64,000 nucleotides of DNA from a virus. Lineage: Duplodnaviria > Caudoviricetes. Below are positions 2,667-61,380 of this stretch, piece by piece (position 1 is the stretch's first letter; every line of letters starts with the position of its first letter). A program made the position numbers and the translations under genes. Under the pieces are notes generated by a model. It had not been told where the DNA came from. It searched no databases and was given only the letters and a program-made list of their open reading frames with translations. The stretch lies in the IMG/VR virus record IMGVR_UViG_2974766419_000001, positions 1 through 64,000 of that record; one strand, 5' to 3'.

Positions 2667-2815
2667 GTCGTCACCACGAACAGGATCGCGAGCACCGCGA
2701 AGGTCCCGAGGGCGATGCCGGCGAGCGCCATATTCACCCGCCAAGGCAGCTGAGTGACCGGGGTGTTGCGGTCCCAGGCGTCTCGCATCTGCTCGCCGAG
2801 TGAGGGCTCAGGCAT
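2663..2815 (-). CDS. Small membrane protein (50 aa)
   Basis: C-terminal hydrophobic helix ALAGIALGTFAVLAILFVV. Confidence 0.6.
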   Translation of the reverse strand: MPEPSLGEQMRDAWDRNTPVTQLPWRVNMALAGIALGTFAVLAILFVVTT

Positions 2816-3113: not shown

Positions 3114-3444
3114 GGTCAACCTCCGGTGTGGTGGGCTCTACGTCGAACATCGCCAGGGTCTGGTCCTCGACGGTGCCGCGGCGCACGCTGTCGGGCTGGG
3201 TGCGGAACTCGTCGCACTTGAGCGTGGAATCCAGCGTCGGAGCGTTGGGCACGCGGGTCCACTGCTTGGGCTTGCGGCCGGTGCGCACGGCGCTGGCCAG
3301 GATCGGGCACCCAGCCCCAGTGCCGGTGCGGCGGGCCAGTTCTTGGTCGGGTTGGACGCAGCGGTCGCACCAGCGTTCGGTCCAGATGGCGCGGTGCGTC
3401 GGCGTGCGCCACAGCGGGTTGACCGGAGGTTTGCGGGCCATCAC
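3106..3444 (-). CDS. Hypothetical Cys-containing protein (112 aa)
   Basis: ORF track; WCDRC...GCPIL...C; near the C-terminus QTLAMF. Confidence 0.7.
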   Translation of the reverse strand: MMARKPPVNPLWRTPTHRAIWTERWCDRCVQPDQELARRTGTGAGCPILASAVRTGRKPKQWTRVPNAPTLDSTLKCDEFRTQPDSVRRGTVEDQTLAMFDVEPTTPEVDHA

Positions 3445-3926
3445 GGTTCAGGCTCGGTGAAGTCGAGGTTCTGGAATCGCATGTACTCCTCAATGACGGT
3501 GCGGGCCGGCGGATTGAGCCGGTAGTCCAGAGCGCGGACCAGCGCTTCAGGCGACCAGCGTCCGATGCCCTGATTGCACGGGCCGCACAGCAGACCGCGG
3601 ATGCACCGAGGGCAGCCCTTGTTGGCGTCGTGGCCACACACCTCGACGGCCATCTTGTGATCGTGGTCGACGGCGAGCCTCTTGGTCTTGCCGGTGGCGA
3701 TCTGGCATATGGCGCATTTACCGCCCTGAGCCTCGTACAGCGTCCAATACAGCTCCTGGGGTATCCCGTACCCAGATTCGACCCTTCGGCCGTGAGCGTT
3801 GAGCCTGGCCTGCTTCTTGGCGGCTCTGGTGTGGGTGGCGCAGCGTTTGACCCGCGTGCCCGACGCAATGGGTCGCCAGGTGGCGATCCCCTCAGCGATG
3901 CAGTCGGCGCACTCGGGTGCTTTCAC
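3441..3926 (-). CDS. Endonuclease VII family protein
   Basis: YGI...AQGGKCAIC...LAVDHDH...RGLLCGPCN.GIG signature. Confidence 0.88.
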   Translation of the reverse strand: MKAPECADCIAEGIATWRPIASGTRVKRCATHTRAAKKQARLNAHGRRVESGYGIPQELYWTLYEAQGGKCAICQIATGKTKRLAVDHDHKMAVEVCGHDANKGCPRCIRGLLCGPCNQGIGRWSPEALVRALDYRLNPPARTVIEEYMRFQNLDFTEPEP

Positions 3927-4750
3927 GCCCAGAACCCTGCCGTGCTGGCTTGCATCTCGTCAGGCGACGAGACGCCGCTGGAGTACGCGGCGAGGTGGGC
4001 CAGTGCCCGCTCGCGCTGCTCGGGTGCCATCCGGTCGAGCACCGCCTGGCCTTCGGGTGTGAGGTTCACCAGCGCCGGGGCGGCCTGCGGCTCAGGCTCG
4101 GGTGCGGTCCAGAAGTCCGCGGGCACGGCGACAGCCGGTCCGGTGTGGTCGACGGGCTGGTCTTCGCGCGGCTCGAAGACGCAGCCGGGTACGTGCGGCG
4201 TGGCGAACTCGGTGGGGCAACACTGGCGCTTCATCGGCTCGGGCTTGAGCTCGGGTTCGGGCACGGCCTGTTCGGAACCCGAACACCCTTCAGGTGTGGA
4301 ATCGGCCCTGTGGCCGTGGTGGCGCATGAGGCCGCTGATGCCGACGTAGCCCTCGTCAGGTGTGGGATCGGCCAGTTCTCCGACGACCTCGGCGAGCTTG
4401 CCGACGACGCCCGCCAGCTCGGCCAGTTGGGTGCCGAACTGCTTGAGCGCCTTCTCGCACCCGGCGACGCGTTCGGCCAGCTTCTCCACCGCGCGGTCAG
4501 TGTCGGAATCCCACGGTCGCTCAGTCTCGACTTGAGGTTGAGACTCGGCAGGCCTCTCCGCGAGCCGCAGGGTTGATCCCGTGAGCACCACGCCTTCCTC
4601 GATGAGCCTGTCGAGTTCCGCGCCGCCAGCCTTGTAGTCGCCGGTCGCCGCGCGGATGAGCTTGGTTCGCGTCAGGCCGCGTTCGGGTGCCTCGGCGAGT
4701 GCGTCGATGAGACGAGCGCGAATCCGCTCGGATGGGTTCGTGGGGGGCAT
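3923..4750 (-). CDS. Putative DNA-binding protein (N-terminal winged-HTH-like, coiled coil, Pro/Glu-rich linker)
   Basis: IDALAEAPERGLTRTKLIRAA...ELDRLIEEGVV resembles a wHTH; leaderless start behind a SigA-like promoter. Confidence 0.65.
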   Translation of the reverse strand: MPPTNPSERIRARLIDALAEAPERGLTRTKLIRAATGDYKAGGAELDRLIEEGVVLTGSTLRLAERPAESQPQVETERPWDSDTDRAVEKLAERVAGCEKALKQFGTQLAELAGVVGKLAEVVGELADPTPDEGYVGISGLMRHHGHRADSTPEGCSGSEQAVPEPELKPEPMKRQCCPTEFATPHVPGCVFEPREDQPVDHTGPAVAVPADFWTAPEPEPQAAPALVNLTPEGQAVLDRMAPEQRERALAHLAAYSSGVSSPDEMQASTAGFWA

Positions 4751-4758
4751 GGCAGACG

Positions 4759-4787
4759 AGTATGCGCCGCCCTGTCGGGAATGTCAA
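4759..4787 (-). promoter_or_regulatory. SigA-like leftward promoter (TTGACA-17-CATACT), likely leaderless
   Basis: Minus strand -35 at 4787-4782, -10 at 4764-4759; ATG at 4750. Confidence 0.7.
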
Positions 4788-4847
4788 TCATTGCGACATT
4801 CGGGCCGCGTCAGGTCCGCTCGCTGGCGAACTCTCGACCAGCAACGA

Positions 4848-5191
4848 ATGTTGTACATGTTGTACATTTTCGGGGGTGCCCGTGTTTGAGCGAGTTTGTA
4901 CCCATATATGATTGAATAATAATATATATATTATATATATATGCAGGTCAGAGAGTTAGAGCATTCTAACAAAGTTAGAGAAAGTTAGAGAAAGTTAGAG
5001 GCGCGGGCGGATGGGGCATGTTGTACATGTACAACATGTACAACATGCCAGCAAACATTTGACCTAGTGCTAGAACGCCCTGACCTGCGGATTTAGACGA
5101 GCCGGCATACTTCCTCTTGACAGAAATCCGCAAAAACCGCCTCTGACCTGCTGTACAACATGGGTGTACGGCACGGTTAGACCCAGTTAGA
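4848..5191. other. AT-rich, iterated-repeat region; putative replication origin or control hub
   Basis: (AT)-rich tract ~4904-4942; AAAGTTAGAG x3 (4971-5000); perfect 22-bp palindrome 5017-5038; CTGACCTGC x3. Confidence 0.6.
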
Positions 5192-5212
5192 AATCAGTAT
5201 TTGTCAAGCCTA

Positions 5213-5242
5213 TTGACAGCCGTCGGAGGGTTGGTGCAGAAT
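5213..5242 (+). promoter_or_regulatory. SigA-like rightward promoter (TTGACA-18-CAGAAT), likely leaderless
   Basis: -35 at 5213-5218, -10 at 5237-5242; ATG at 5250. Confidence 0.7.
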
Positions 5243-5249
5243 CAACGAC

Positions 5250-5537
5250 ATGCCGCAGACAGACCTCGAAGACCTCCGCTGGGCGGTCGAAACGCTCCGC
5301 TGGGCCAAGCAACGCAAGGCCGAAATCAAGGAGGCCGAGGAGTCTGCTCGACTCGCCATCGAGACCGCGCTCGGCAACAACGACGAGGGCACACTCGACG
5401 GCCACGCCGTCGTCAGGTGGAAGCCGCAGAAGCGCAACGCGCTCGACCAGAAATTGCTCAAGGCCGCGTTCCCTGAGATCTACGAGGGCTGCAAGACCAT
5501 CACCGAGGTCCGGCGGTTCGAGGTCCTCGATGACTGA
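5250..5537 (+). CDS. Hypothetical protein (95 aa), first gene of the replication/recombination module
   Basis: ORF track; coiled N-terminus; overlap with nuclease gene. Confidence 0.75.
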   Translation: MPQTDLEDLRWAVETLRWAKQRKAEIKEAEESARLAIETALGNNDEGTLDGHAVVRWKPQKRNALDQKLLKAAFPEIYEGCKTITEVRRFEVLDD

Positions 5538-6279
5538 GGCATTCTTCGACACCTCCACGCCTCAACACGATCCGCTGCGCGGGGAACTCCTGGACATGAT
5601 CCGGTTCCGCGACTACTCGACACCGCGGCACCGCCAAGTCGAACTCGGCCCCTCCGACGTTTCCCACCCCTGTATGCGCAAGACGGCATTCGCCTCCATG
5701 CAAGAACCCGAGACGAATCCACCGTTCGATCCGCTCGCCTCGATCATCGGCACCGCGATGCACACCTGGCTGCAGTCAGCCGCGGAACTCTCCAACCAGG
5801 TGCTCGGCCGGCAACGCTGGCTGACCGAGACGCGGGTGCCAGTCACCCCGACACTCGCCGGATCGTCGGACCTCTACGACACCGACACCGACACCGTGAT
5901 CGACTGGAAGACCGCATCGACCACCCGGCTGCGCAAGTACCGCAAGGACCCCGGCCCGCAGTATCGAGGTCAGGTTCACCTTTACGCCCGCGGTTTCGAG
6001 AACCTGGGGTTTCAGGTCAAGAGGGTGGCCATCGCGTTCATCCCTCGTGGCGCGACGCTGCACTCGTTTCACGTGTGGAGCTCCGACTACGATCCGCGCG
6101 TCGCGGACGCTGTGCTGGCCCGCCGCAACCAGACCCTCGCGCTGATCGACGACCTTCAGGTGGAGAAGTACCCCGAGCGGTACGCCTGGATTCCAGCCGA
6201 GTCGTGGGACTGCGAGTACTGCCCGTTCTTCTCGACCAACCCCAACAGCCCCTACCAGTGCAAAGGCGACGGCACCTGA
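5530..6279 (+). CDS. Cas4-like / PD-(D/E)xK exonuclease
   Basis: CMRK...GTAMH...ETRV...GSSDL...IDWKT...QVHLY...CEYCP...C: RecB-type motifs with split four-Cys cluster. Confidence 0.85.
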   Translation: MTEAFFDTSTPQHDPLRGELLDMIRFRDYSTPRHRQVELGPSDVSHPCMRKTAFASMQEPETNPPFDPLASIIGTAMHTWLQSAAELSNQVLGRQRWLTETRVPVTPTLAGSSDLYDTDTDTVIDWKTASTTRLRKYRKDPGPQYRGQVHLYARGFENLGFQVKRVAIAFIPRGATLHSFHVWSSDYDPRVADAVLARRNQTLALIDDLQVEKYPERYAWIPAESWDCEYCPFFSTNPNSPYQCKGDGT

Positions 6280-6434
6280 TGATGATGCGTGATCGAATCG
6301 TCGTGATCGAAGAGCTGTCCACTGCCTTTGTGTCCCTGCTGAAGGCGCAAGCCGCACTCGCCTTCGACAACACCCTGGACGAGGCGTGCGTCGAGGTGCG
6401 CGACAAGCTCATCCACCACCTCAACCAGGTATAG
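6279..6434 (+). CDS. Hypothetical protein (51 aa)
   Basis: TGATG overlap; same frame as ORF 6075-6434. Confidence 0.55.
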   Translation: MMMRDRIVVIEELSTAFVSLLKAQAALAFDNTLDEACVEVRDKLIHHLNQV

Positions 6435-6516
6435 GCTTCCGCGCCCCTCGGCGCTGAAGGTGTTCGGTTTCCGAACACACCGCCCCATCAGAAAATCGAC
6501 AGATCGGACAATCACC

Positions 6517-7185
6517 ATGACACTCGGCGGATTCTTCTCCGGCGGCGCTAAGGGCATCACTTGGCCCGAACAGCCCGGCACCCCCGGCGGCCGCACCGGA
6601 GTCACCGGAACCATCGAGATTGTGCACCCGCCCGAGCCGGTGGTCGACATCAAGACCGGCCAGCCCACCGACAAGCAGCAGGTGCGCATCGTGCTCGCCA
6701 CCGACGAGCGCGATCCCAGCGAACCTGACGACGACGGTCGCCGCACCCTGTACGTGAAGTCGTACATGCGCGGTGCCATCGGCGACGCGCTGCGCAAGGC
6801 CGGGGCCAAGGAGCCCGAGGTGGGCGGCACCCTGACGGTGACGTTCACTCACGTCACCCCGCCGGATCGGCCGGGCATGTCGCCGTCGAAGCACTTCGCA
6901 GCCACCTACACCGCGCCCCCGGTGACCGGCGGCTACTTCGCACCGCCTGCAGCTCCCGCCGTGACCCCGGGTGCCACCTACGGTGCCCCGGCTCAGCCGG
7001 CCCCGGTTCCCCCGGCCGTTCAGCAGGCGTTCCCCGGTGCGACGCAGGTGCCTCAGCCCACCGTGGCCCCCGAGCCGGTCAAGCCTGCGGCCATTTCGGA
7101 CGCGGCATGGGCGGCGATGGATGCGCCGACCCGCGCGACGGTCGCGGCAACCATGGGCGGAGGCGCAGACAGGCCGTCGTTCTGA
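6517..7185 (+). CDS. Putative single-stranded DNA-binding protein
   Basis: Beta-rich N-domain, Pro/Ala linker, C-terminal DRPSF tail ending in Phe; next to exonuclease. Confidence 0.55.
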   Translation: MTLGGFFSGGAKGITWPEQPGTPGGRTGVTGTIEIVHPPEPVVDIKTGQPTDKQQVRIVLATDERDPSEPDDDGRRTLYVKSYMRGAIGDALRKAGAKEPEVGGTLTVTFTHVTPPDRPGMSPSKHFAATYTAPPVTGGYFAPPAAPAVTPGATYGAPAQPAPVPPAVQQAFPGATQVPQPTVAPEPVKPAAISDAAWAAMDAPTRATVAATMGGGADRPSF

Positions 7186-7206
7186 TCCCTCTCGAATACC
7201 CGCTGT

Positions 7207-7240
7207 AGATGAGCCCCACGAGCTATCGTGGGGCTCATCT
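7207..7240. other. Perfect 15-bp inverted repeat (hairpin)
   Basis: AGATGAGCCCCACGA-GCTA-TCGTGGGGCTCATCT, intergenic. Confidence 0.85.
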
Positions 7241-7268
7241 CTACCCCCACTCAGGAGAGAGAGGCGGC

Positions 7269-7583
7269 ATGGCCTGCCGATATGACACCAAGTACCGGTT
7301 TCGAGACAAAGACGATGCGATCGACGGGGCCGAACAGATAAAGGCCAGGAAGGGTGAAGAGTACGGGCAGCTGTATCCGTACCGGTGCCCCGACGGCGAC
7401 CACTGGCACCTGTCGCATCACGAGCAGGGCGTCGAGCGATGCAGGACCTGCAACCGTTTGGCCCCGGCGTGGAAGGCGAAGGCGTGGGTGATCGGTGCCC
7501 ACGATGGTCCCGACGGCAAGCGGTGCGAGGGCGCAGGCCAGCGCGCCGCGCGTATCACTCCCCGCCCCCGCCGCCGTGGCTGA
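7269..7583 (+). CDS. Hypothetical protein with Cys/His motifs (104 aa)
   Basis: AGGAGAGAGG SD; YRCPDGDHWHL and CRTC motifs. Confidence 0.7.
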   Translation: MACRYDTKYRFRDKDDAIDGAEQIKARKGEEYGQLYPYRCPDGDHWHLSHHEQGVERCRTCNRLAPAWKAKAWVIGAHDGPDGKRCEGAGQRAARITPRPRRRG

Positions 7584-7887
7584 CGAGTCGAATTCCCAGG
7601 TAGAGGTGAAGTCGAAGAAGGTCACCTTCGACACTTCTCTGCCCCGGGGGACGTGTGCCACCTTCATGCACGAGGGTGAGCGTTGGATCGCCTACCCCCA
7701 GAGCAAGGTCTCTGGTGTGTCTGTGGCGATGGAACACATGCTGGCAACCGTCGAGCGCATTCGTGATGACGCGGTGCGCTGGATGAACGCGCATCCCGAG
7801 AGTGCCATTCAGGCTGCGCGTGTTGTCGAACGAACCAACCGACTGGACGAACTGGCAGCAGAGAAGGTCAAGGCATGGACGGCATGA
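7576..7887 (+). CDS. Hypothetical protein (~103 aa)
   Basis: ORF track frame; GTG start overlapping upstream stop. Confidence 0.65.
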   Translation: MADESNSQVEVKSKKVTFDTSLPRGTCATFMHEGERWIAYPQSKVSGVSVAMEHMLATVERIRDDAVRWMNAHPESAIQAARVVERTNRLDELAAEKVKAWTA

Positions 7888-8111
7888 GAGGCCCCACCGC
7901 GGGCGAGATAGTGCAGTGGGGTGCGGCAGCTGACGCGGGGCTGGACGTGTTCATCGCCGCGCAGCGCGAGGTGCCCAACAACTTCAAGGATCTGGTCGAG
8001 GTGCTGATGCGCCACAATCTCGATGGCGAGGGTCGCCGCCGAGATTTCTTCCTGGCCATCACGCTGGCGACGGCGATCATCCGGCTGGCCACAACCGAGG
8101 GAGTGAAGTGA
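7884..8111 (+). CDS. Hypothetical protein (~75 aa)
   Basis: ATGA overlap. Confidence 0.65.
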   Translation: MRGPTAGEIVQWGAAADAGLDVFIAAQREVPNNFKDLVEVLMRHNLDGEGRRRDFFLAITLATAIIRLATTEGVK

Positions 8112-8338
8112 AGATCATCAAGGGGTTCAAGGTCGGGCGCCGCAAGACGGTGGAGCCGAAGGATGTCATCCAGTCGGAGCTGGACAAGGCGTATGCGCTG
8201 CATCCGGCGCATCTGATGGCCGGGTCGGTGGTCAACGCGCTGGCCGAGGCCGGGTTCCGCATCATCTCCGAGGATGAACTCTCCGCTGAGATTGCCGCCG
8301 CGCACGAGGCTGGGTTTGAGGAGGGCTCCATCCTGTGA
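8108..8338 (+). CDS. Hypothetical protein (76 aa)
   Basis: GTGA overlap, GGAG SD. Confidence 0.65.
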   Translation: MKIIKGFKVGRRKTVEPKDVIQSELDKAYALHPAHLMAGSVVNALAEAGFRIISEDELSAEIAAAHEAGFEEGSIL

Positions 8339-10698
8339 TGCCCGACGACAACAGCGTCGGCTACGGCGACGCTGCCCAGGTCTACTGGGACAAAGGGTGG
8401 CGGGGCGTTCTGCCCCTGAAGCGGGAAACGAAGTGGCCCCCGCCGAGTGGGTTCACCGGCTACGACGGCGCGGTGCCGTCCTACCCCGACATCCTGCAGT
8501 GGTCCGAGCTGTACCCCGACGGTAACCTGTGCCTGCGGCTGCCCGACGGCGTGGTCGGCATCGACGTCGACGCGTACGGCGCGAAGACGGGCGCGGCAGC
8601 GCTGGCCGAGGCTGAGCGCCGGTGGGGTCCGCTACCGGATGGGCCGCAGTCGACCAGCCGGCTCGATGATCCGGTGTCGGGCCTGCGCTTGTTTCGGGTG
8701 CCGCCCGGCACGCTGCTGGAAACGATCATCGTGTTCCGTGAGCTGTCCATCGGCGACATCGAGGTCATCCAGCCGCACCATCGGTACGCGGTGTGCTGGC
8801 CGTCGATTCACCCCGAGGGCCGCGCGTACTGGTGGCGCAACTCGCAGGGCCAGACCATCGGCATCCCCGAGCTCGACGACATACCGGAGCTGCCGCCGTC
8901 GTGGCTTGAGGGCTTGAAGCTCACGCCGCGGTCGCTGGACCTCAGCATGGAGGGGTTCGATGTGCGGCAGGCGGTCACCGTGGGTGACCCGTCGCCGCTG
9001 GTGTCGGCCCGTCTGACGATGGCGATCAAGGAGCTGAATCTGCCGGGCACGTCCCGGCACGACACCTGCCTGCGGCATGTGCTGGCGATCCTGCGGATGG
9101 GCGCCGAGGGTCAGCCGGGTGTGGAGCAGGCGTTGACGCTGCTGCGCGAGGTGTTCGTCGCGGTCGTCACCCTGGACGGGTCGCGCACCCGCGACGTTGC
9201 GGTCACCGAGTTCAACCGCATGGTGACCAACAACAACGTTGCGCGCGAGCTGTCGCAGCCGGGCATCGTGGACTGGTTCAAGCAGATCATGGGGGGTGTT
9301 CAGATTCCGAACACCCCCGACGACGATGGGGGCGACCCCGACGCCAAGGAGGCCAGCGCGGATTGGGCCAGCGCCGGGGCCGCCGAAACCCCGCGTGATG
9401 CGTCAACAGCTGCAGGGCCACCCGAGCCTAACAGCGGCGGCGAGCTTGAGGCATTGGAGCAGGACTTCTGGACGGCGCGGCCGCAGCACGAGCTGATCTT
9501 CAACGCGGCGCTGAGCCGGATGGCGTCGCCGTGGGCGGTGTTCGCTTGCGTTGTCGCCCGCGCGTTGTCGCTGGTGCCGCCGAGCATCACGCTGCCCGCG
9601 ATTGTCGGCGGCGTCGGGTCGCTCAACTGGTTCGCGGTGATCGCGGCGAAGTCGGGCGGCGGCAAGGGTGCGGCGATGGCCACGGCGCGCGACCTGATCC
9701 CCAACGACGTGTTCTCCTGCCCTATCGGTTCGGGCGAGGGCATGGTGGAGTGCTACAACCGGGCCACCCCGAAGGGCGACGCCACCCCTGATCCGGTCAT
9801 CTCGGTGATGTTCGAGGTGGAGGAAATCGACACGCTGGGCGCGGTGACCGGCCGTGCCGGGCAGACCACCATGACGGTGTTGCGGCACGGGTTCTCCGGT
9901 GAGCGGCTGGGGTTCGCCTACCGCGGCCGCCGCGGCGAGGTGGTCCCGGCGCACACCTACCGCATGACGCTGATCGCGTCGGTGCAGCCGTCACGGGCCG
10001 GCACACTGCTGGACGACTCGGGCGGCGGCACCCCGCAGCGGTTCATGTGGTTCCCGGGCCGTGACAAACGGATCACCGAGGATGTGCCGGGCTGGCCGAC
10101 CGACGCCGTGGGCGAGATGCTCACCCTGTCGCCGATGCTCACGCCGAGCTGGGTGCTGGCCAACAACTTGGGGCCGTGCGTGGTGCCCGAGGAGGCGGTC
10201 ACCGAGATTCGCCGGGCGCGGGTGCAGTCGATGAGCGGCGACGAGAACGCGCTCGACGGGCACGCCCTGTTCTGCCGGGAGAAGCTGGCGTACGCGTTGG
10301 CGTTCCTCGATGGCCGGGTCGAGGTCAACTCGGAGGACTGGCGGCTGGCCGGTCTGGCCGCCGGGGTGTCGGATTGGATGCGGGAGAAGTCCATCGAGGC
10401 CTATCAGTCCTCGAAGGTCGATGAGTACCGCGAGCGGGGCCAGCTCAAGGGCATCGAGGCGGCGTCGGCTGAGATGGGCAAGGCGCAGGAGCAGACCGAC
10501 CGTGCGCAGCGCGTCGCCAACAGTGTGCTCGACAAGATCCGCAAGGCTGGGCCGGAGGGCATTAGCAATCGGGAGCTGACACAGCGGGTGGCCTATCGGG
10601 ACCGCGGCATGTTGCCGGGTGTGCTGGAGTGGGCGGTCGGTCAGGGCATGATCGCGCAGATATCGGGAACGACGAATTGGGTGGTGACGGATGCTTAG
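8338..10698 (+). CDS. Bifunctional DNA primase/polymerase fused to a P-loop helicase-like domain and C-terminal wHTH
   Basis: GWRGVLPL...NLCLRL...GIDVD Prim-Pol N-terminus; AAKSGGGKG Walker A-like; EVEEID Walker B-like; QRF motif. Confidence 0.85.
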   Translation: MPDDNSVGYGDAAQVYWDKGWRGVLPLKRETKWPPPSGFTGYDGAVPSYPDILQWSELYPDGNLCLRLPDGVVGIDVDAYGAKTGAAALAEAERRWGPLPDGPQSTSRLDDPVSGLRLFRVPPGTLLETIIVFRELSIGDIEVIQPHHRYAVCWPSIHPEGRAYWWRNSQGQTIGIPELDDIPELPPSWLEGLKLTPRSLDLSMEGFDVRQAVTVGDPSPLVSARLTMAIKELNLPGTSRHDTCLRHVLAILRMGAEGQPGVEQALTLLREVFVAVVTLDGSRTRDVAVTEFNRMVTNNNVARELSQPGIVDWFKQIMGGVQIPNTPDDDGGDPDAKEASADWASAGAAETPRDASTAAGPPEPNSGGELEALEQDFWTARPQHELIFNAALSRMASPWAVFACVVARALSLVPPSITLPAIVGGVGSLNWFAVIAAKSGGGKGAAMATARDLIPNDVFSCPIGSGEGMVECYNRATPKGDATPDPVISVMFEVEEIDTLGAVTGRAGQTTMTVLRHGFSGERLGFAYRGRRGEVVPAHTYRMTLIASVQPSRAGTLLDDSGGGTPQRFMWFPGRDKRITEDVPGWPTDAVGEMLTLSPMLTPSWVLANNLGPCVVPEEAVTEIRRARVQSMSGDENALDGHALFCREKLAYALAFLDGRVEVNSEDWRLAGLAAGVSDWMREKSIEAYQSSKVDEYRERGQLKGIEAASAEMGKAQEQTDRAQRVANSVLDKIRKAGPEGISNRELTQRVAYRDRGMLPGVLEWAVGQGMIAQISGTTNWVVTDA

Positions 10699-10903
10699 GC
10701 GGATCACGACGTGCATCGTCACGACGTGCCACAGTTCCATCTTCGGGACGACGTATCAGCCCATCGAGTTCGAGGGTGAGGGGCTGGATCGTCGCGTCGT
10801 GTGGCGGGGCGCGCACTACCAGTCGGAGCCGCGCGCACGGGAGGCTGCCATGGAGCATTGGCAGCGCGTGCGCGGAGTGTTCAGGCCAGGAGTGAAGAAG
10901 TGA
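10691..10903 (+). CDS. Hypothetical protein (70 aa)
   Basis: ORF track; overlaps both neighbours. Confidence 0.55.
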   Translation: MLRRITTCIVTTCHSSIFGTTYQPIEFEGEGLDRRVVWRGAHYQSEPRAREAAMEHWQRVRGVFRPGVKK

Positions 10904-11094
10904 GCCCAGAGCTACGTGCTGTACTCACAGAAGCCCTCGGCCGGTCGTACTACCGGATCGTTGGTAGCTCGTCGGATTGTCGAGTTGATCCGGGCGAGAT
11001 CCTTGCTGACGCCATCCTGTCTCTTCCGGGTGTGGCGGTAATCCAACTACCCAAACCCGACGAGCGTGTTGCTTATCAGGGGTTGATTCGATGA
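10900..11094 (+). pseudogene. Hypothetical gene apparently truncated by the MPME insertion
   Basis: LSLPGVAVIQLPKPD then AYQGLIR*, the last codons coming from the TTATCAGGGGT repeat. Confidence 0.5.
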
Positions 11095-11438
11095 TCGTCG
11101 CCGTTTCTCCAGGTAGGCAGCCGATCTGACAGCGCACACATGTTTCCGATTACCGACACTCGTAGGGAGATGACGACTATGCCGACCACAGAGCATGGAT
11201 CAGACGTCCAGCACTTGAGCCCTGAACACCGCGATCGTGCTTGGCGCGATAGGTTCAACGCCCGGTGGCACTATGACTACGGCGGGTGGATTCGTACCAG
11301 GCCGCAGGATGAGGCGTCGACCTTCGCTTTGATCCCAACCAAACACTACGGACCGTTCACTGAGGATCACTCGTGTCCTGCCTGCCTGGTGGTACACCCA
11401 CCTGAGGATTGCCCCGTCCTAAGTGGAAACACCGACAT
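11073..11438 (+). mobile_element. Truncated mycobacteriophage mobile element (MPME1-like)
   Basis: Left IR TTATCAGGGGT at 11073-11083 matches the MPME consensus TTATC[A/T]GGGGT as I recall it; lower GC; ORF matches the MPME1 protein from memory up to ...GNTD; no clean right IR. Confidence 0.75.
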
Positions 11439-11514
11439 CTTCGGTACCACAAGTTCCGGCCCAACCATCTTCGACAGCTTCGATTCAGGGCCAGGAGGAG
11501 TGTTCAGGCCCTGA
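11140..11514 (+). CDS. MPME-encoded protein with a replaced C-terminus
   Basis: MFPITDTRREMTTMPTTEHGSDVQHLSPEHRDRAWRDRFNARW...; start could be 11170 or 11179. Confidence 0.7.
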   Translation: MFPITDTRREMTTMPTTEHGSDVQHLSPEHRDRAWRDRFNARWHYDYGGWIRTRPQDEASTFALIPTKHYGPFTEDHSCPACLVVHPPEDCPVLSGNTDIFGTTSSGPTIFDSFDSGPGGVFRP

Positions 11515-11814
11515 CTATGAGGCGGTGGTGACCACTCGCCGGAGGCTGGCGCGAATCGAGCGCCGGGTTTCGGCGGTGGCCGCCGCTGTGCCTTTCCACG
11601 GGATCCACACCCCGGCGTAGAAACCGCCGGTCACCCCTTTGAGTGCGTGCATGGCGCACCGGGTGAGCACAGGGCATTCGGCGCAGACGGCGCTCATGCG
11701 TCGGCGCTGCGCTGCGCTGGGCATCGTGTCGGCTGTCCACGGCAGGTCGCGGCGAGCCGCGCAGGCCGCACCATGCCACTCGTTTGTCGCGGGCACACAC
11801 GCAGCGTAGAACAT
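11515..11814 (-). CDS. WhiB-like Fe-S transcription factor (divergent)
   Basis: Four-Cys pattern AC...CAECPVLTRC followed by GFYAGV turn and basic tail. Confidence 0.7.
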   Translation of the reverse strand: MFYAACVPATNEWHGAACAARRDLPWTADTMPSAAQRRRMSAVCAECPVLTRCAMHALKGVTGGFYAGVWIPWKGTAAATAETRRSIRASLRRVVTTAS

Positions 11815-11821
11815 AGGGTCG

Positions 11822-11851
11822 TTGACTTTATGTATGACGCGACACTAATTT
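11822..11851 (+). promoter_or_regulatory. SigA-like rightward promoter (TTGACT-18-TAATTT)
   Basis: -35 at 11822-11827, -10 at 11846-11851; ATG at 11859. Confidence 0.5.
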
Positions 11852-11858
11852 CGATGGA

Positions 11859-12293
11859 ATGGCGAACAAAAAAATCGCTGACCTCATCGCAAATGGACTG
11901 CGGCAGGGTCTGGTGCATCCCGGCAAGGACGGCGGGCCGCCCACCCCAGTGGTGATCCCGATGTTCCGCACCGAGGGGATGCCCAATGAGATGGCCGAGT
12001 TGGTGGGCGCGACCGCCGACCTGCTCGGCGAGGCGATTGTCGAGCTCATCGAGACCGAGGGTGACAGCCAGATCGTTTCCAACACCGAGGTCATCGCCAA
12101 CCGTGTTGCCAACGACGACGACGCAGCGCGGCGTCAGGTCACGGTGCACTGCCAGTGCGACGTTCGCCGCACCAACCCGCTGGCCGTGCTCACTGTCACC
12201 CGCAGCCCGTATGTGGTGGTCGACGGCAAGCAGCTGATCGACGGCCTGGCCAAGCGCACCGCCGAGTGCCCTCACGGATGGAAGACGTCATGA
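11859..12293 (+). CDS. Hypothetical protein (144 aa)
   Basis: ORF track; coding-like codon bias. Confidence 0.75.
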   Translation: MANKKIADLIANGLRQGLVHPGKDGGPPTPVVIPMFRTEGMPNEMAELVGATADLLGEAIVELIETEGDSQIVSNTEVIANRVANDDDAARRQVTVHCQCDVRRTNPLAVLTVTRSPYVVVDGKQLIDGLAKRTAECPHGWKTS

Positions 12294-12526
12294 GTCACCT
12301 ACACCTGATTGTTGACCGCGAGACAGCGTTCGAGGGCAACCTCAACCTGTGGCAGGCCACGCCGCCGGACTACTTCAAGGACAAGCTGCGCGAAGACGTC
12401 AACCCTGAGCAGTGGCTCAAGTGCGTGATGATCGTGATGGCCGAAGCCGCCGCGACCGGGGAGAATGTGAAGATCATTGTCACGACCGGCCGGGACTGGC
12501 AGATGGAGGTGAGGCGCTATGAGTAG
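12290..12526 (+). CDS. Hypothetical protein (78 aa)
   Basis: ATGA overlap. Confidence 0.7.
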   Translation: MSHLHLIVDRETAFEGNLNLWQATPPDYFKDKLREDVNPEQWLKCVMIVMAEAAATGENVKIIVTTGRDWQMEVRRYE

Positions 12527-12791
12527 CGGCATCCGTACGGCGACCGTGTACCGCACCGAGGCTCGCGCGCTCAAGCCCGAGGTCGACGCGCGAAACTACG
12601 GCGAGCCGGATCAGCCGCAGTTCCTGATCGCCGCCTTCCCCGACGGGAAGGTGGCGCAGCGCTGGCTGATCGGCAGCGGTTCCTGTGTATGGTGGGACGA
12701 TCTGGCGCACCTGTACTCGGTGCACATCTACCCTCATCCCGACTACGGCACCGAGGTGCACTGGGATGACGGGCATGTGGAGCGGCTGTGA
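12519..12791 (+). CDS. Hypothetical protein (90 aa)
   Basis: GAGG SD; overlap. Confidence 0.75.
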   Translation: MSSGIRTATVYRTEARALKPEVDARNYGEPDQPQFLIAAFPDGKVAQRWLIGSGSCVWWDDLAHLYSVHIYPHPDYGTEVHWDDGHVERL

Positions 12792-13141
12792 CCGCCCGCC
12801 GCCGAGCGCCCGGTCAGCTGACCAGTCGACGTTGGCGCGCGCTGAAGGATCGGGTGGTGCGCGAGGAGCCGCTGTGCACGCTGCGCCTGGAGTGCTGCAC
12901 CGTGCGGTCCACCACCGCCGACCACATCATCCCGGTGAAGTATCGGCCGGACCTGAAGTATGTTCGGGCCAACCTGCGCGGCGCGTGCCAGCCGTGCAAT
13001 ATGCGCCGCGGCACGCGGCCGCTGTCGGAGGTGCGGGCCGCAGAGAAGTTCGCCCGCAAGCCTGAGCCGCCGAAGCCGGTGCACGCGCTGAGCTTCTTCG
13101 ACACCAACCCACGGATGAGAAACCTGGACTTCGAGACATGA
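12788..13141 (+). CDS. HNH endonuclease (terminase-associated type)
   Basis: PLC...C...TTADHIIP...NLRGACQPCNMRRG; sits just upstream of terminase genes. Confidence 0.88.
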   Translation: MTARRRAPGQLTSRRWRALKDRVVREEPLCTLRLECCTVRSTTADHIIPVKYRPDLKYVRANLRGACQPCNMRRGTRPLSEVRAAEKFARKPEPPKPVHALSFFDTNPRMRNLDFET

Positions 13142-13632
13142 ACGAAGACGACAAGCCCACGCCCATGCAGCGCACCCAAGAGCTACTGAAGGAGCTGCTG
13201 GGGAGTATGAACACCCTGTTGCCGCCGCAGCTCTCGCCGCCCAATCCGCTGTTGCCCCCGCCGAGCGGGGCCGAAGCCGAGGAGCAGGTGGTCAACTTCC
13301 AGGGTGAGGTCGTCAGGAGCGATCCTCTCGCTTTCGGCAGCGACCCGATCCCCATGACCGGCGTGGGCCTTGCCCGTGGCCAGATGATCGGCTACGGCGG
13401 CGTGCCGATGGCCGCGTGGGCTGACGCCAATCCCAGCTTCCCCGGCCCCTACACGATAGAGGGGATGACGCGCGCCCGGGATGAGATGATGCGCGCCGAT
13501 GAGATGATGCGTGCATGGCTCACCAGGACGAGGACCGCCGTCGATAGCCCTCCCTTCAACATCGTGGGAGGCCGTCGTACCGAACCCGAACCGGAGCAGC
13601 CCAAGGGCCGGTTCCAGAACCTGGATTGGTGA
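13138..13632 (+). CDS. Hypothetical Pro-rich protein (164 aa)
   Basis: ATGA overlap; ends GRFQNLDW*. Confidence 0.7.
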   Translation: MNEDDKPTPMQRTQELLKELLGSMNTLLPPQLSPPNPLLPPPSGAEAEEQVVNFQGEVVRSDPLAFGSDPIPMTGVGLARGQMIGYGGVPMAAWADANPSFPGPYTIEGMTRARDEMMRADEMMRAWLTRTRTAVDSPPFNIVGGRRTEPEPEQPKGRFQNLDW

Positions 13633-43006: not shown

Positions 43007-44251
43007 ATGGCGGCCACCAAAGACCAGGTTGCGCAGATCATCGTGACCGAGGCCAAGGCGCGCGGCTACACCCGCGAAGAGACCCGGGCCATCATGTCGA
43101 TGTTGTATCAGGAGTCGCGCTGGGACGAGACGATCTGGGGTCCGTCCGGCAAGAAGATCACCTACGGCATCGCGCAGCAGGACGGCTCCTACCCGAACCG
43201 CTTCAACGGGGCCGCGGCGCAGATCAAAGGCTTCTTCGACAAGTTCGACGTGTGGCGGCGCAAGCCCGGCGCGTCCGGCGACATCTGGCTGGACATCGCG
43301 TGGATGCAGCAGGCACCCAACTGGGAGAGTGCGGCCTACTGGTACGCCAGCGGTCGCCGCGCCTACCTCACCGAGATCAAGCAGCACATCAACACGGTGA
43401 CCCCCTACCTCGACAAGTACTGGCCCAGCACCACAGGAGGAACGGTGGCCGTCTCAGGCGACCCGGTTTGGCTCGAAGATGTTCTCCGGCCCGCGCTCGG
43501 TGACCGGCTGCGCACCCTGCCCGGCTGGAAGACCGATGGTGTCGGCGGCACCATGAAGGAAATCTGGGGCATCATGTGGCACCACACCGGCAACTCCAAC
43601 GAGAAGCCGGAGTCGATCAGCGTCGGCCGCCCCGACCTGCGCGGGCCGCTCGCCCAGATTCACATCGCGCCCAGCGGCATCGTCACCATCGTCGCGGTCG
43701 GCCCCTGCAACCACGCGGGCCTCGGTTCCTACCCTGGACTGCCCACCAACAACGCCAACCAGTACACCATCGGCATCGAGTGCGCCTGGCCCACTCCGCG
43801 CAAAGACCTGCCGCTGGGCTACGACCCGAACGAGCGGTGGCCCGACGCGCAGATCATCTCGATGCGCGACGTCGGCGCGGCCATCACCAAGCACCTCGGC
43901 TTCGACGCGTCGCGCAACATCAGCCACAAGGAGTGGGCCGGCGCAGCGCAGGGCAAATGGGACCCCGGCAACCTGGACATGAACTGGTTCCGCGGTGAAA
44001 TTCAGAAGGACATGGACGGGTTCGTGTTCCCCGGCGAAACCCCCGGTGAAGCGCCGCAGCAGCCCGGCCCGATCTTGGCGCCCGACTACACCAAGGAGGT
44101 GTGGGACCAGCTGCGCATCGAATGGCCGCAGCTGGGCGGGCGCACCCTGGTCGACGCGGTGGCCGCGATCGGGGAGAAGCTGGGCATCCCTGGCTGCTAC
44201 GACGTGAAGGCCAGGACCTCACGGTTCGCGCAGCTCGACATCAAGGAGTGA
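43007..44251 (+). CDS. lysA: Lysin A (N-terminal hydrolase-like domain + amidase-2 + C-terminal binding domain)
   Basis: GIMWHHTG...GPLAQ...HAG...IGIE...HKEW...KWDPG Zn-amidase motifs. Confidence 0.93.
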   Translation: MAATKDQVAQIIVTEAKARGYTREETRAIMSMLYQESRWDETIWGPSGKKITYGIAQQDGSYPNRFNGAAAQIKGFFDKFDVWRRKPGASGDIWLDIAWMQQAPNWESAAYWYASGRRAYLTEIKQHINTVTPYLDKYWPSTTGGTVAVSGDPVWLEDVLRPALGDRLRTLPGWKTDGVGGTMKEIWGIMWHHTGNSNEKPESISVGRPDLRGPLAQIHIAPSGIVTIVAVGPCNHAGLGSYPGLPTNNANQYTIGIECAWPTPRKDLPLGYDPNERWPDAQIISMRDVGAAITKHLGFDASRNISHKEWAGAAQGKWDPGNLDMNWFRGEIQKDMDGFVFPGETPGEAPQQPGPILAPDYTKEVWDQLRIEWPQLGGRTLVDAVAAIGEKLGIPGCYDVKARTSRFAQLDIKE

Positions 44252-57848: not shown

Positions 57849-58298
57849 TCAGTGTTCAAGGTGGGAGAACCGGTGCTGCACCCGGTCCACCAGCAGATCG
57901 TGCGGCTTCACCTCGAAGTCGAGCAGCACCCTGGCGAAGTCCAGTGTCTGCACTTCGGCCACGCGGGCCAGCTCAGCCAGCTTGACCAGCACGTCCTTCA
58001 TCTCCGTGGTATCGGCGGGCTGAAGCATCTCGTACAGCTTCCGGCTGAATCCAACCCACGGCCCAGCCGACATCCGCTGATACAGTCCGGCCTGCCAGCG
58101 ATTCCACGCGAACTCCGCCTGGCTGAAGGTGGGACCGCCGAGCTTCCGGGGATACACCCTGCGTGGCTTCACCTCCTCTGTCGCCCCGATCATCTCGCTG
58201 GTGTCCCACCTCCACGGATGGCCCTCAGGCAGGGCGATCATCCCCGCGAAGTAGAACGGCAAGGGCTCCGGCCAGTTGATCACCCTGCCCATCAGCAT
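57849..58298 (-). CDS. Hypothetical protein (149 aa; coding-like sequence extends upstream to ~58407)
   Basis: ORF track; the 35 in-frame codons upstream are also coding-like. Confidence 0.7.
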   Translation of the reverse strand: MLMGRVINWPEPLPFYFAGMIALPEGHPWRWDTSEMIGATEEVKPRRVYPRKLGGPTFSQAEFAWNRWQAGLYQRMSAGPWVGFSRKLYEMLQPADTTEMKDVLVKLAELARVAEVQTLDFARVLLDFEVKPHDLLVDRVQHRFSHLEH

Positions 58299-58784: not shown

Positions 58785-59588
58785 TCACACGACCTCCTCG
58801 AAGTCGAGTGCATACCCCGACGGCCGAACAACGGCCTCGGGCTCGGTCTCGGTGGGCTCGAAGTCGATGGCCCGACCAGTGTCGCGGAACGCCTCGACCT
58901 CCACGTCCTGGTCCACCTCGAAGTCGAGGAACGAGCTGCGGGCCAGGCCGATCATCTCGATGGCGTTGCGGTCGATTTCCACGGCCACCTGCTCACCGGC
59001 CGCGACGATCTTCTTGCACGCCTCGCGGGCCGCGTTGACCGCGAGCTTCACGTCGGCGTTGGCGTTCGGCGAGAGCATCTGCCCCACGTCGAGCGCCTTC
59101 GAGCACGCCGCGCGGACCTTCTTCACGTCCAGCTCTTTCAGGCCATCCTGCATCTGGGCCATGAACCGCTCAGTCTCGGAGAACAAGGCGCGGGCCGTGT
59201 TCACGTCGTCGGCGACGATCTCACCGCAGATGACGTTGACCTCCACCCGTGAGAACGCTGCCTTGGCGTTGAACTCTTCGACCATGCGCCGCGCCTCGGC
59301 GATGGCTGCGTGCAGCTCCTCGCGGCGCTCCATCGGGCACAGCGGGCCGTGCGCGGTGTCAGCGCACAGCCGGGTGATGAGGTAGCGGGCACGGTTGGCG
59401 ACCTGCGACGCCTCCTTGGCCTCCTCGGGGTCGAACACGATCTTGGTGGTGTCCCACCGGCTGCGTTCCACGCCGCCCTCGGCGATGTGGGGGCGTTCGA
59501 TTTCGCGCTTCTGGTAGGCGCGGTTGCCCGACTGGTGGGTCTTCAGCGACACCAGGATGCCGGGCTTGAGGGATCGGATTTCGTTCAT
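58785..59588 (-). CDS. Helical hypothetical protein (267 aa), AAA-module partner
   Basis: AGAAGGAG SD; acidic tail with three xxDFE motifs. Confidence 0.8.
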   Translation of the reverse strand: MNEIRSLKPGILVSLKTHQSGNRAYQKREIERPHIAEGGVERSRWDTTKIVFDPEEAKEASQVANRARYLITRLCADTAHGPLCPMERREELHAAIAEARRMVEEFNAKAAFSRVEVNVICGEIVADDVNTARALFSETERFMAQMQDGLKELDVKKVRAACSKALDVGQMLSPNANADVKLAVNAAREACKKIVAAGEQVAVEIDRNAIEMIGLARSSFLDFEVDQDVEVEAFRDTGRAIDFEPTETEPEAVVRPSGYALDFEEVV

Positions 59589-59679: not shown

Positions 59680-61380
59680 CTACAGGTCGAGCACGCGGAC
59701 CTTGGTCGGCCCGGCCGGCACGGCCTCGGTGTCGGGGCGGGTCGCCGGTCGCGCACGGCCCATCCACGACTCCCGCAGACGGGCGATCTTGTCGCCCATC
59801 GTCCGGTTCAGCGGGATCACCTCACCCGCGGCGTGCAGGATGTCCTCGGTGGTGATTTCGCGGCCACCGTCGGCGAACGCGTTGAACATCGCATCGTGCT
59901 CGATGCACGCGGCGATCTCAGCGCCGGTGAACCCGTTGGTGGCGTCGGCCACCGCGCCCAGGTCGATGCCCAACGTCTCGGCGTCGCGTCCGTTGCTGCG
60001 CAGTGTCGCCGCGGCCACCGACATGCGTTCGGCCCGCGTCGGCAGGTCGATCCACCACACCTCATCGAAGCGGCCCTTGCGCAGGAACTCCGGCGGCAGC
60101 TTCGACGGGTCGTTGGCCGTCATCATGACGAACGCCTGCCCGGCGCGGTCCTGCATCCAGGTGAGGATGGCACCGAGCGCGTCGGCCGACACGCCACCGT
60201 CGGCACTGCCCGACACCGCGCCTTCCAGCGCTTTCTCCACCTCGTCGATGTAGACGATGACCTGGCCGAGCGCGTCGATCTTGGAGAAGATGCCGCGCAG
60301 CCTCGACTCCGACTCGCCGACGTACTTGCCTTTGAGCGCGTTGATGTCCAGCCGGACCACCGGCCAGTTCCACTCGGCGCCCAACGCCTGGCAGGACAGG
60401 GTTTTGCCGCAGCCCGAGACGCCGATGAGCATCGCACCCTTGGGCAGCTTCAGATTGTAGGCCCGCGCCTCCGGTGAGTATGCGATCTTCTGCCGGATCG
60501 CCCACTCCTTGAACACGTCCAGCCCGCCCACGTTGTCGAAGCCACCCGGCCGCGGCGGGTAGTACTCCATCGCCGGCTCCTGGTCGATGAGCCGTTTCTT
60601 CTCGGCGGCGATCGCCGAGACGTCGATGCTGCCGTTTTCGATGAGCGACCGGGCGAACGTGGTCTGCACCTCCTGTGAGGACAGGCCCACCGCGGCGTCG
60701 ATGGCGGCGTCGCGGGTGTTGCCCTTCTTCAGCAGGTTGAGCACCCGGCGCTTCATCGGCTGCTCTTCGGTGTCGGGCAGCACGTCGACCGCGCCGGACA
60801 GAATCTCGCCGATCTCTTCACGGTCGGGCAGCGGCCAGTCGATGACGGTCAGCTCGCCGTTGGACAGCTCGGGCGGCGGCGGGTTGCCAGCGGACAGGAT
60901 GATGATGGCCTGTGCCACGTTGCGCGGGGTGCCCGCCAGCCCGTCGGGTCGCAGCATGTTGCGCAGGCGGCGGCGGGTGAGCGCACCGGCTGCGCCTTCC
61001 AGCCACGGCCCCAGGTCGCGCATGATCCACACGTTGCGATCGGTGCGGGAGGTCGACTGCTTCGACCTCTTGTTGATGTCGTCGAGCATCTTGTCGGGGT
61101 CCTCGGGTGCGGCGTAGTCCACGTCGCCGCGGATGGCGGTGCCGTCGATTTTGAGCGCGCCGTTGGCGATGTCCCAGGTGTGCGGGATGTACCCGGCCTT
61201 GGCGATGGCGGTGAACAGGTCCTGCTCGGTGCGCGCCTCGTCTCGGCTGATGATCCAGAACCCGGCGCAGCGTGCCCTCAGCGCCAGCGTCACGTCTTCC
61301 ATCGCCAGCTGGCTGCGGGTCTTCTTGGGGGTGTTCGGTTTCCGAACAGTGGCCACTCGCTTCTTGGGAGCGTCGGTCAT
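59680..61380 (-). CDS. AAA+ ATPase (Ycf46/SpoVK-like; degenerate N-domain plus one intact AAA domain)
   Basis: VGGLD; GVSGCGKT; KYVGESE pore loop; YIDEVEK; TAN; LPPEFLRKGRFDE; GFTGAEI. Confidence 0.92.
   Translation of the reverse strand: MTDAPKKRVATVRKPNTPKKTRSQLAMEDVTLALRARCAGFWIISRDEARTEQDLFTAIAKAGYIPHTWDIANGALKIDGTAIRGDVDYAAPEDPDKMLDDINKRSKQSTSRTDRNVWIMRDLGPWLEGAAGALTRRRLRNMLRPDGLAGTPRNVAQAIIILSAGNPPPPELSNGELTVIDWPLPDREEIGEILSGAVDVLPDTEEQPMKRRVLNLLKKGNTRDAAIDAAVGLSSQEVQTTFARSLIENGSIDVSAIAAEKKRLIDQEPAMEYYPPRPGGFDNVGGLDVFKEWAIRQKIAYSPEARAYNLKLPKGAMLIGVSGCGKTLSCQALGAEWNWPVVRLDINALKGKYVGESESRLRGIFSKIDALGQVIVYIDEVEKALEGAVSGSADGGVSADALGAILTWMQDRAGQAFVMMTANDPSKLPPEFLRKGRFDEVWWIDLPTRAERMSVAAATLRSNGRDAETLGIDLGAVADATNGFTGAEIAACIEHDAMFNAFADGGREITTEDILHAAGEVIPLNRTMGDKIARLRESWMGRARPATRPDTEAVPAGPTKVRVLDL

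Follow-up and report, generated by a model that had tools for sequence, protein, structure and literature searches.

A terminal R-F-x-x-L-D peptide on unrelated proteins of Corndog-like mycobacteriophages as a probable docking motif

Introduction

Shared terminal peptides are the means by which sliding clamps and other hubs organise many enzymes. Bacterial clamp-binding motifs (CBMs) follow the pattern Q-phi-x-[L/M]-[F/L] or its hexameric form, Q-phi-x-[L/M]-x-[F/L] (PMC11139829), the NucS protein of M. tuberculosis has a Q-less C-terminal EYRLF (PMC12892979), and in phage T4 the gp43 polymerase, gp33 and gp55 share C-terminal clamp epitopes, hydrophobic and acidic in character, that can be interchanged and are joined through variable linkers (PMC2988020). 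In this study, we examined a peptide motif, R-F-x-x-L-D, located near the termini of unrelated proteins encoded by a 64,000-nucleotide stretch of viral DNA (positions 1 to 64,000 of IMG/VR record IMGVR_UViG_2974766419_000001; this whole stretch is referred to as the window). The window is from a Cluster O (Corndog-like) mycobacteriophage of the genus Corndogvirus and exhibited 98% identity over 13 kb to SchoolBus, Catdawg and Corndog.

An earlier note on this DNA had described a shared C-terminal [R/Q]xLD[F/W/L] peptide, likened it to canonical clamp-binding motifs and proposed that it recruits nucleases and an AAA module to the clamp of the phage or to the AAA hexamer. A text search of the comparative Cluster O paper returned a 17-bp DNA repeat and unrelated points only, and the peptide motif was not reported in the passages retrieved (PMC4351075). 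The phage is small (~71 kb), and the group to which it belongs is cultured on M. smegmatis and is open to engineering. The comparisons described below indicated that R-F-x-x-L-D is very probably a functional docking motif.

Results

Carriers of the motif

The SchoolBus annotation was transferred to the window, giving 100 proteins with a total of 19,862 residues. Copies of the motif, or of a motif-like peptide, were detected near the C-termini of the following proteins.

Endonuclease VII, 3441-3926, minus strand: RFQNLDF at 3459..3479 (minus), residues 150-156, followed by TEPEP and the stop codon (translation checked)
HNH endonuclease gp27, 12788-13141, plus strand, adjoining the terminase genes: RMRNLDF at 13112..13132 (plus), residues 109-115, in a protein that ends RMRNLDFET
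Orphan gp28, 13138-13632, plus strand, between gp27 and the small terminase: RFQNLDW at 13609..13629 (plus), at the extreme C-terminus (GRFQNLDW)
gp91, 57849-58298, minus strand: RFSHLEH at 57852..57872 (minus), at the C-terminus
Lysin A (LysA), 43007-44251, plus strand: RFAQLDI at 44222..44242 (plus), motif-like, near the end, membership uncertain

Comparison with relatives gave the consensus R-[F/M/L]-x-[N/E/H/Q]-[L/M]-[D/E]-hydrophobic, usually with acidic residues after it. R, F, L and D were the fixed positions in orthologues, Q being merely one choice at the variable third position, and the last residue differed between copies (F, L, W, V, M, C, I, H, T or P). The motif was always outside the catalytic domain, at varying distances from it, and was joined to the proteins by Pro/Glu/Ala-rich linkers of variable length and sequence. 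All of the strings quoted in the earlier note were present in the genes named (MRFQNLDFTEPEP in endonuclease VII, RMRNLDFET in the HNH, GRFQNLDW in gp28, KVRVLDL in the AAA ATPase, FLDFE, AIDFE and ALDFE in gp94 and QTLAMFD in gp8). The shared terminal peptide of that note was upheld, in a different register, as R, F, L and D are invariant and Q is not. Its list of carriers stood for endonuclease VII, the HNH and gp28; gp91 had been missed, gp94 and gp8 were removed for the reasons given below, and the AAA ATPase was set apart as a possible degenerate copy.

The C-terminus of endonuclease VII (EndoVII) reads MRFQNLDFTEPEP. The Pfam Endonuclease_7 match covers residues 47-136, placing the motif outside the domain. 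An AF2 model of EndoVII (121 sequences, pLDDT of 96) had a last helix, residues 140-152, that ran into R150-F151, and the NLDFTEPEP segment formed a coil with pLDDT values of 75-81. These values were not below 50, and the motif was not clearly disordered in this protein; the linker to the domain was longer in other homologues. Analysis of 120 EndoVII homologue clusters detected the motif in 14, always past the conserved DPPAR that ends the domain, and most of the others ended a few residues after DPPAR. The variants observed were RFQNLD[LC], RLANLDL, RFANLD[LV], RFAELD[VL], RFENMDF and RM[SA]NL[DE]F, located 3 to about 15 residues past the domain, often with acidic residues next to them, and some copies were 10-50 residues from the end of the protein. 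Similarly, 12 of 66 HNH homologue clusters added RF[EASK][NE]LD-x behind the ALEFF end of that family.

A sequence search for gp28 found no relatives outside Cluster O; the protein has no Pfam family and matches a PHROG of unknown function, and it appears to be a mostly disordered-looking orphan. Genes at the gp28 position in divergent syntenic metagenomic phages encoded proteins of 100-267 amino acids that were 27-33% identical to gp28 and ended GRFQNLDW (L065), GRFRNLDFEE (L067), NRFQHLDWEEGVA (L070) and GRFRNLELSEDDDE (L081/L082). All five of the gp28-like genes seen carried the motif, and all were located between the HNH and the small terminase. An alignment of five sequences (gp28, a second Cluster O copy, L065, L067 and L070) had invariant columns at M1, V52, R158, F159, L162 and D163 only.

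The counterpart of gp91 in SchoolBus ended RFSQLEH, and a 27%-identical homologue in an L065-type phage (L079:1349-1876) had SRFRHLDV, 22 residues from its end. The LysA copy was due to a 24-bp in-frame indel (44218-44241, plus strand) that encodes SRFAQLDI. Searches by tblastn and blastn of 32 Cluster O records detected this segment only in Bora, Smooch, Firecracker and the window, and no second copy of the 24 bp was present in the window.

Frequency and position of the motif

The earlier note had suggested that enrichment at C-termini be examined, and this was borne out. The original pattern, [RQ].LD[FWL], had 6 matches in the ~19,900-residue proteome, of which 4 were C-terminal compared to 0.15 expected, a value reached in 0 of 1,000 within-protein shuffles. 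A strict pattern, R[FLM].[NEH][LM][DE], which was refined post hoc after the data had been seen, had 4 matches in the window (EndoVII, HNH gp27, gp28 and gp91) compared to 0.31 expected from within-protein shuffles, an excess of about 13-fold. All 4 were within 6 residues of the C-terminus compared to 0.046 expected, and none of 1,000 shuffles equalled this result. Once the pattern had been fixed, further copies were found out of sample in gp91, in the L081/L082 carriers and at the N-terminus of a protein of L003.

A control set consisted of 78 unrelated IMG/VR loci with EndoVII relatives (950 kb; 6,128 six-frame open reading frames). A slightly wider pattern, which also allows Q at position 4, had 10 matches in this set, or 1.3e-5 per residue, and only one was within 12 residues of a stop. 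The same pattern had 5 matches in the window (the four strict copies and LysA), or about 2.5e-4 per residue, which is ~20-fold higher than in the control phage DNA. In an L065-type genome, of which 72 kb was walked and 118 proteins were called, 2 of 3 pattern matches were C-terminal. A scan of IMG/VR with back-translated RFQNLD gave 59 chance matches in unrelated contigs and served as a baseline only.

Conservation, gain and loss of the motif

The two RFQNLD copies in the window differ at three synonymous sites, in agreement with the different codons seen in the earlier note. Codon usage also varied among orthologous copies, with CGG, CGC, CGT or CGA for R, TTC or TTT for F, CTG, TTG, CTA, CTT or CTC for L and GAT or GAC for D. 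Furthermore, R-F-x-x-L-D was retained in gp28-like, HNH, EndoVII and gp91 orthologues that were 27-80% identical, and the linkers changed in both length and sequence. The tail flanks of the different carriers were unrelated and had no DNA word in common, indicating that the tails are not copies of one segment. The proposal that selection acted on the peptide, rather than DNA copying, was thus supported by the synonymous variation, the retained peptide and the different linkers, and conservation in orthologues, which had also been suggested as a check, was observed.

Two features of a short linear motif were present. The motif was conserved as flanking linkers diverged in gp28-like, EndoVII and HNH proteins, and it occurred independently in EndoVII, HNH, gp28-like and gp91-like proteins, a 137-amino-acid L081 protein, an N-terminal orphan of L003 and the LysA indel. 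In the L003 orphan (L003:12428-12916), the motif is at the N-terminus, MAGRFSHLDFDE, and is followed by a Pro-rich linker. A C-terminal degron of the ssrA type was rejected, as such a signal requires a free C-terminus and other copies, in EndoVII homologues and L079:1349-1876, lie 10-50 residues inside the protein in addition to the N-terminal one.

The set of carriers differed between phages. EndoVII and HNH both carry the motif in the L003-type contig. Neither does in L081/L082, where it is found on the gp28-like gene and on the 137-amino-acid protein encoded upstream of EndoVII. About half of the 32 Cluster O records are Corndog-type isolates, in which a 1-nucleotide deletion introduces a stop before the HNH copy (the protein ends SFFDTNPR) and gp28 and EndoVII keep theirs. 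Comparison of L068 (Corndog; 12740-12800) with 13100-13141 of the window indicated that this deletion creates a TAA stop and removes the last 8 residues of the HNH (MRNLDFET). No gp28-like gene and no copy of the motif was found in 20 kb of L069, including its HNH, EndoVII, small and large terminases and portal. Within one lineage, the motif therefore shifts from gene to gene and can be missing from all of them together, which suggests that the receptor itself is lineage-specific.

Overall, these comparisons demonstrated, at the level of the peptide sequences, a real terminal motif under selection that has been gained and lost independently in unrelated genes. By its distribution, the motif is private to the lineage of Corndog-like actinophages, in which it is present on at least four protein families. 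As the carriers are from unrelated families, a shared docking function is the natural reading.

Look-alike peptides

Several other terminal peptides resembled the motif and were considered as copies.

gp8, 3106-3444, minus strand
gp11, 5250-5537, plus strand: RRFEVLDD at 5511..5534 (plus), at the C-terminus; look-alike, excluded
gp94, partner of the AAA ATPase, 58785-59588, minus strand: acidic tail with three x-[LI]-D-F-E repeats at 58788..58925 (minus), FLDFE, AIDFE and a terminal ALDFEEVV; a separate conserved motif
AAA ATPase gp95, 59680-61380, minus strand: KVRVLDL at 59683..59703 (minus), C-terminal tail; possible degenerate copy

The gp11 peptide was rejected as a carrier. Its 150 family representatives share a terminal RRF-x-hydrophobic-hydrophobic in which position 4 is hydrophobic and D is not conserved, and only 1 of the 150 fits the motif. 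The segment was read as the last beta-strand of the domain. The gp11 family is widespread (239 representatives at E<=0.001) and is related to the C-terminal part of RecE-like exonucleases (phrog_434). Among the proteins reported from Corndog virions banded twice in CsCl, gp13, the gp11 homologue, is alone in being encoded away from the structural gene block (PMC4351075). A role for the motif as a capsid cargo-loading peptide was rejected on the same account, in which the twice-banded Corndog virions contain structural-region proteins and gp13 only and EndoVII, HNH and the gp28 homologue are not among the proteins given (PMC4351075).

The gp94 repeats lack R-F. Two of them are conserved in the gp94 homologue of an L065-type phage (VDFD and MDFED, within RAVDFDPE and a terminal VPDMDFEDVG), and the repeats suggest multivalent binding to an oligomer. 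The tail of gp95 has V at position 4, where the motif has N, E, H or Q, and is preceded by a Pro/Ala/Thr-rich, disordered-looking linker. Distant AAA homologues from Pseudomonas, Rhodobacter and Rhizobium phages gave tblastn alignments that appeared to reach the end of the protein, and their tails are unlike that of gp95. The AAA tail is a possible degenerate copy of the motif, for which there was no informative orthologue.

The QTLAMFD of gp8 groups with an ALxFF(D) motif of the HNH family and not with R-F-x-x-L-D. A second terminal motif, L-x-[FIVLW]-F, was present in the last 45 residues of 59 of 66 terminase-adjacent HNH clusters, typically as a final P-x-A-L-E-F-F-[S/G/A/R]. In the window, ALSFF(D) of gp27 is at 13085-13099 (plus strand) and the similar (Q)TLAMF(D) of gp8 is at 3142-3162 (minus strand), so that HNH gp27 bears both ALSFF and RMRNLDF. 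As a sequence pattern, ALxFF fits the pentameric clamp-binding form x-L-x-[LMF]-F better than R-F-x-x-L-D does.

The phage clamp as candidate receptor

From the movement and joint absence of the motif, we infer that its receptor is a lineage-specific and probably phage-encoded protein. The leading candidate is the beta-type clamp of the phage, a possibility that we consider credible and a little short of an even chance.

Beta-type sliding clamp gp80, 50844-52022, minus strand: phrog_947, 'DNA polymerase processivity factor', 1.3e-68

The earlier note had likewise stated that the phage encodes its own clamp. The phage lacks a replicative polymerase gene of its own and encodes a primase-polymerase only. 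gp80 is a very divergent DnaN, with a weak Pfam DNA_pol3_beta_3 match and distant matches to beta-clamps in the PDB (best E-value, 0.018). A low-confidence hhalign alignment (probability 12%) with domain III of E. coli DnaN indicated that the M-P-x-R C-terminal strand and the Y323 equivalent are kept and placed R, H and F at the equivalents of N320, R246 and P242, respectively. An AF2 model of gp80 made from a 2-sequence alignment had a pLDDT of 43 and was not used. The first 45 residues (51885-52022, minus strand) are Arg-rich and have no counterpart in a 50%-identical homologue, and the PHROG match starts at residue 46; the true start of gp80 is probably Met46.

Searches with tblastn detected clamp homologues only in the 32 Cluster O records, and no clamp relatives were found by search in JGI metagenome contigs and IMG/VR. 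A motif-bearing L065-type phage encodes the 50%-identical clamp beside Ku and ParB. Clamp and motif are alike limited to this group of phages and were found together in each of the two genomes in which both were readable.

The motif probably tethers EndoVII, the terminase-adjacent HNH, gp28, gp91 and the further orphans of related phages to one common partner. If gp80 were this partner, the L and the last hydrophobic residue would plug hydrophobic subsite I of the clamp, as in hexameric motifs (x-x-x-[LM]-x-[FL]), and R-F would take over from the canonical Q-aliphatic pair. The clamp could then act as a tool-belt that gathers branch-resolving and cos-cutting nucleases, together with the terminase-adjacent gp28 adaptor, on phage DNA. 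In its full form, this is a tentative proposal: a DnaN-type phage clamp with a private Gln-less client code (R-F-x-N-L-D-phi) would carry a Holliday-junction resolvase, a cos-cutting HNH and a disordered terminase-adjacent adaptor, and would couple the products of replication and recombination to genome cutting and packaging, orthogonally to the clients of the host clamp.

A number of observations weigh against the clamp. The likeness to canonical QL[S/D]LF-type motifs that the earlier note had seen was weakened, since R-F is conserved and Q, the most conserved residue of clamp-binding motifs, is not; Gln is absent from position 1, F and L are one residue further apart than phi2 and L4, and agreement with the hexameric class is confined to the second half, [NE]-L-D-F. 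The [L/M]-[D/E]-hydrophobic segment fits the hexameric spacing, but the last residue is variable over the ten residues given above. gp28 ends in W, and a peptide with W in place of F as its final residue is bound less well by the E. coli clamp (PMC11139829). No polymerase or primase of the phage carries the motif in the 100-protein set. LysA has a copy in a few isolates, and half of Cluster O does without the HNH copy. The co-occurrence of clamp and motif rests on two genomes. Lastly, the constant carrier gp28 and the HNH adjoin the terminase genes, and the location of gp28, with the HNH on one side and the small terminase on the other, is just as suggestive of the packaging machine.

Alternative explanations

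The same motif could recruit its carriers to the DNA-packaging machine.

Small terminase, 13643-13933: phrog_1459, directly after gp28
Large terminase, 13890-15404

The receptor would then be the large or small terminase or the portal, with the HNH cutting cos together with terminase, EndoVII clearing branches ahead of the motor and gp28 acting as a packaging accessory. The constant location of the motif-bearing gp28-like genes is in keeping with this proposal, as is the presence of the HNH beside the terminases, which is the usual layout in those cos phages for which an HNH is required. In T4, endonuclease VII associates with the portal. A protein language model feature search of the ESM Atlas placed gp28 nearest to portal-fragment clusters, with a score of 0.88 that is below the 0.9 line and provides a lead only; the leads for gp91 from this atlas were likewise below threshold. 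The phage without the motif, L069, is informative here: its large terminase shares 74-81% identity with those of the other phages, which is also the range between motif-bearing phages, and its small terminase and portal are likewise similar. A receptor in the packaging machine would therefore have outlived its ligands, which weakens this explanation. Furthermore, gp91 and the N-terminal carrier of L003 are encoded in early operons far from the packaging genes, and the small terminase has a different conserved C-terminal peptide of its own, KW[DN]P..[ED]L. Packaging as the common destination was thus considered unlikely.

A different hub, either a host protein such as the host beta-clamp or the AAA+ module (gp95 with gp94), is also an improbable receptor. 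For the AAA+ module, a role in holding or unfolding potentially toxic enzymes, or in timing their release, is conceivable, and two nucleases are indeed among the carriers, joined in a few isolates by lysin A. Both gp95 and gp94 have hydrophobic-acidic tails of their own (the terminal KVRVLDL and the xDFE repeats conserved in a relative); however, only this tail chemistry links the module to the carriers, and a C-terminal degron is at odds with an N-terminal copy and with copies that lie as far as 50 residues from the end. For the host clamp, there is the precedent of Q-less clamp-binding motifs in mycobacteria (PMC12892979). Hundreds of EndoVII genes in other mycobacteriophages of the same host lack such a tail, and a host receptor is therefore unlikely.

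The absence of any shared function would require the copies to be due to chance, to recombined tail segments of common descent or to the composition bias of acidic tails, and was judged very unlikely. The post hoc refinement of the pattern, the chance look-alike at the C-terminus of gp11, the loss of the HNH copy in half of Cluster O and the rare indel behind the LysA copy would be compatible with it. The ~13-fold excess over shuffles and ~20-fold excess over control phage DNA, with all of the strict copies terminal, are not, and in the gp28-like proteins no segment other than the motif is conserved. The out-of-sample copies in gp91, L081 and L003 argue against chance, and the unrelated flanks argue against common descent. 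A nucleic-acid signal (a ribosome-binding or translational-coupling element, or a site in RNA or DNA at gene junctions whose translation into this peptide is coincidental) is suggested by the location of several copies just before overlapping stop/start junctions (ATGA and GTGA) of tightly packed genes. It can be dismissed, as synonymous sites differ between copies as well as between orthologues, anywhere from 0 to 50 codons separate the motif from the stop, one copy is N-terminal, no shared DNA word was found and the 17-bp Cluster O palindrome has a different sequence (PMC4351075).

Other terminal peptides and neighbouring observations

The small terminase ends (13907-13930, plus strand) in K-W-[D/N]-P-x-x-[E/D]-[L/V], which is kept in five divergent phages and is preceded by a Gly/Ser/Glu-rich stretch that varies; this is probably a peptide that binds the large terminase. 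A third terminal motif, [S/G]-F-W-[A/E/S], was detected in gp10 (3923-4750), which ends GFWA at 3926-3946 (minus strand). Genes beside EndoVII in other phages have related peptides, with terminal SFWA and GFWE in L003, a terminal GFWS and an internal SFWE in L070 and an internal SFWE in L081, and some EndoVII variants have AFWLW. The 241-amino-acid gp14 (6460-7185, plus strand) has a Pro/Ala-rich C-terminal half that ends DRPSF; its relatives end KPPF, PPPY, TPPF and SPF, similar to the tip of bacterial SSB tails, and gp14 may be a single-strand-binding protein of the phage.

In L069, the primase-helicase gene (1703-3751, minus strand) encodes an unrelated N-terminus in place of the archaeo-eukaryotic Prim-Pol domain and the same helicase half. 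On visual inspection, this N-terminus was taken for a DnaG-like zinc-finger/Toprim primase, and genes for queuosine precursors (QueC, radical SAM and PTPS) are located near the primase-helicase gene.

Discussion

The motif described here would be a new sequence class of shared terminal peptide, present on nucleases and orphans. Identification of its receptor would give a function to gp28 and gp91, both of which lack a known family, and would explain the presence of a beta-clamp gene in a phage without a replicative polymerase gene of its own. If the clamp were the receptor, client codes could diverge far from QLxLF, with consequences for searches that look for clamp partners by motif and for peptide inhibitors directed at the mycobacterial clamp.

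Comparison with the CBMs of polymerases II, III alpha, IV and V, Hda, MutS/L and NucS indicated several likenesses. Both are short motifs on the termini of unrelated DNA enzymes, N-terminal copies occur in both (Hda being the CBM example), and the phage encodes a DnaN-type clamp. The second half of the motif, [N/E]-[L/M]-[D/E]-[F/L], resembles the hexameric class, such as QVELEF and the phage-display peptide LQLELDF, and acidic flanks are typical of both (PMC11139829). The differences are an invariant R-F and no conserved Q, more than 40 instances having F, M or L (hexamer alignment) or R (heptamer alignment) in the register of Q; a position 2 that is not aliphatic in the hexamer register; a last residue that may be W, V, H or P; and the lack of a polymerase among the carriers.

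The PCNA PIP-box of archaea and eukaryotes provides a similar arrangement, in which one hub serves many clients by a short terminal motif. Its clients include Holliday-junction resolvases and structure-specific nucleases. In contrast to the motif of the window, the PIP-box reads Q-x-x-[LIM]-x-x-[FY]-[FY] and belongs to another clamp family and another domain of life.

The clients of the T4/RB69 gp45 clamp differ in that this clamp is a PCNA-like trimer and not a DnaN-like protein, the peptide has a different sequence and the clients are a polymerase and transcription factors rather than nucleases and orphans. Interchangeability and binding have been shown in T4, whereas the evidence for the present motif comes from sequence comparison. 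The likeness is in the arrangement, a phage-private hydrophobic and acidic terminal peptide on unrelated proteins, with variable, dispensable linkers and clients that extend beyond replication (PMC2988020). The same arrangement was found in the Corndog-like phages, in which a short hydrophobic/acidic terminal segment is common to several unrelated phage proteins on variable linkers.

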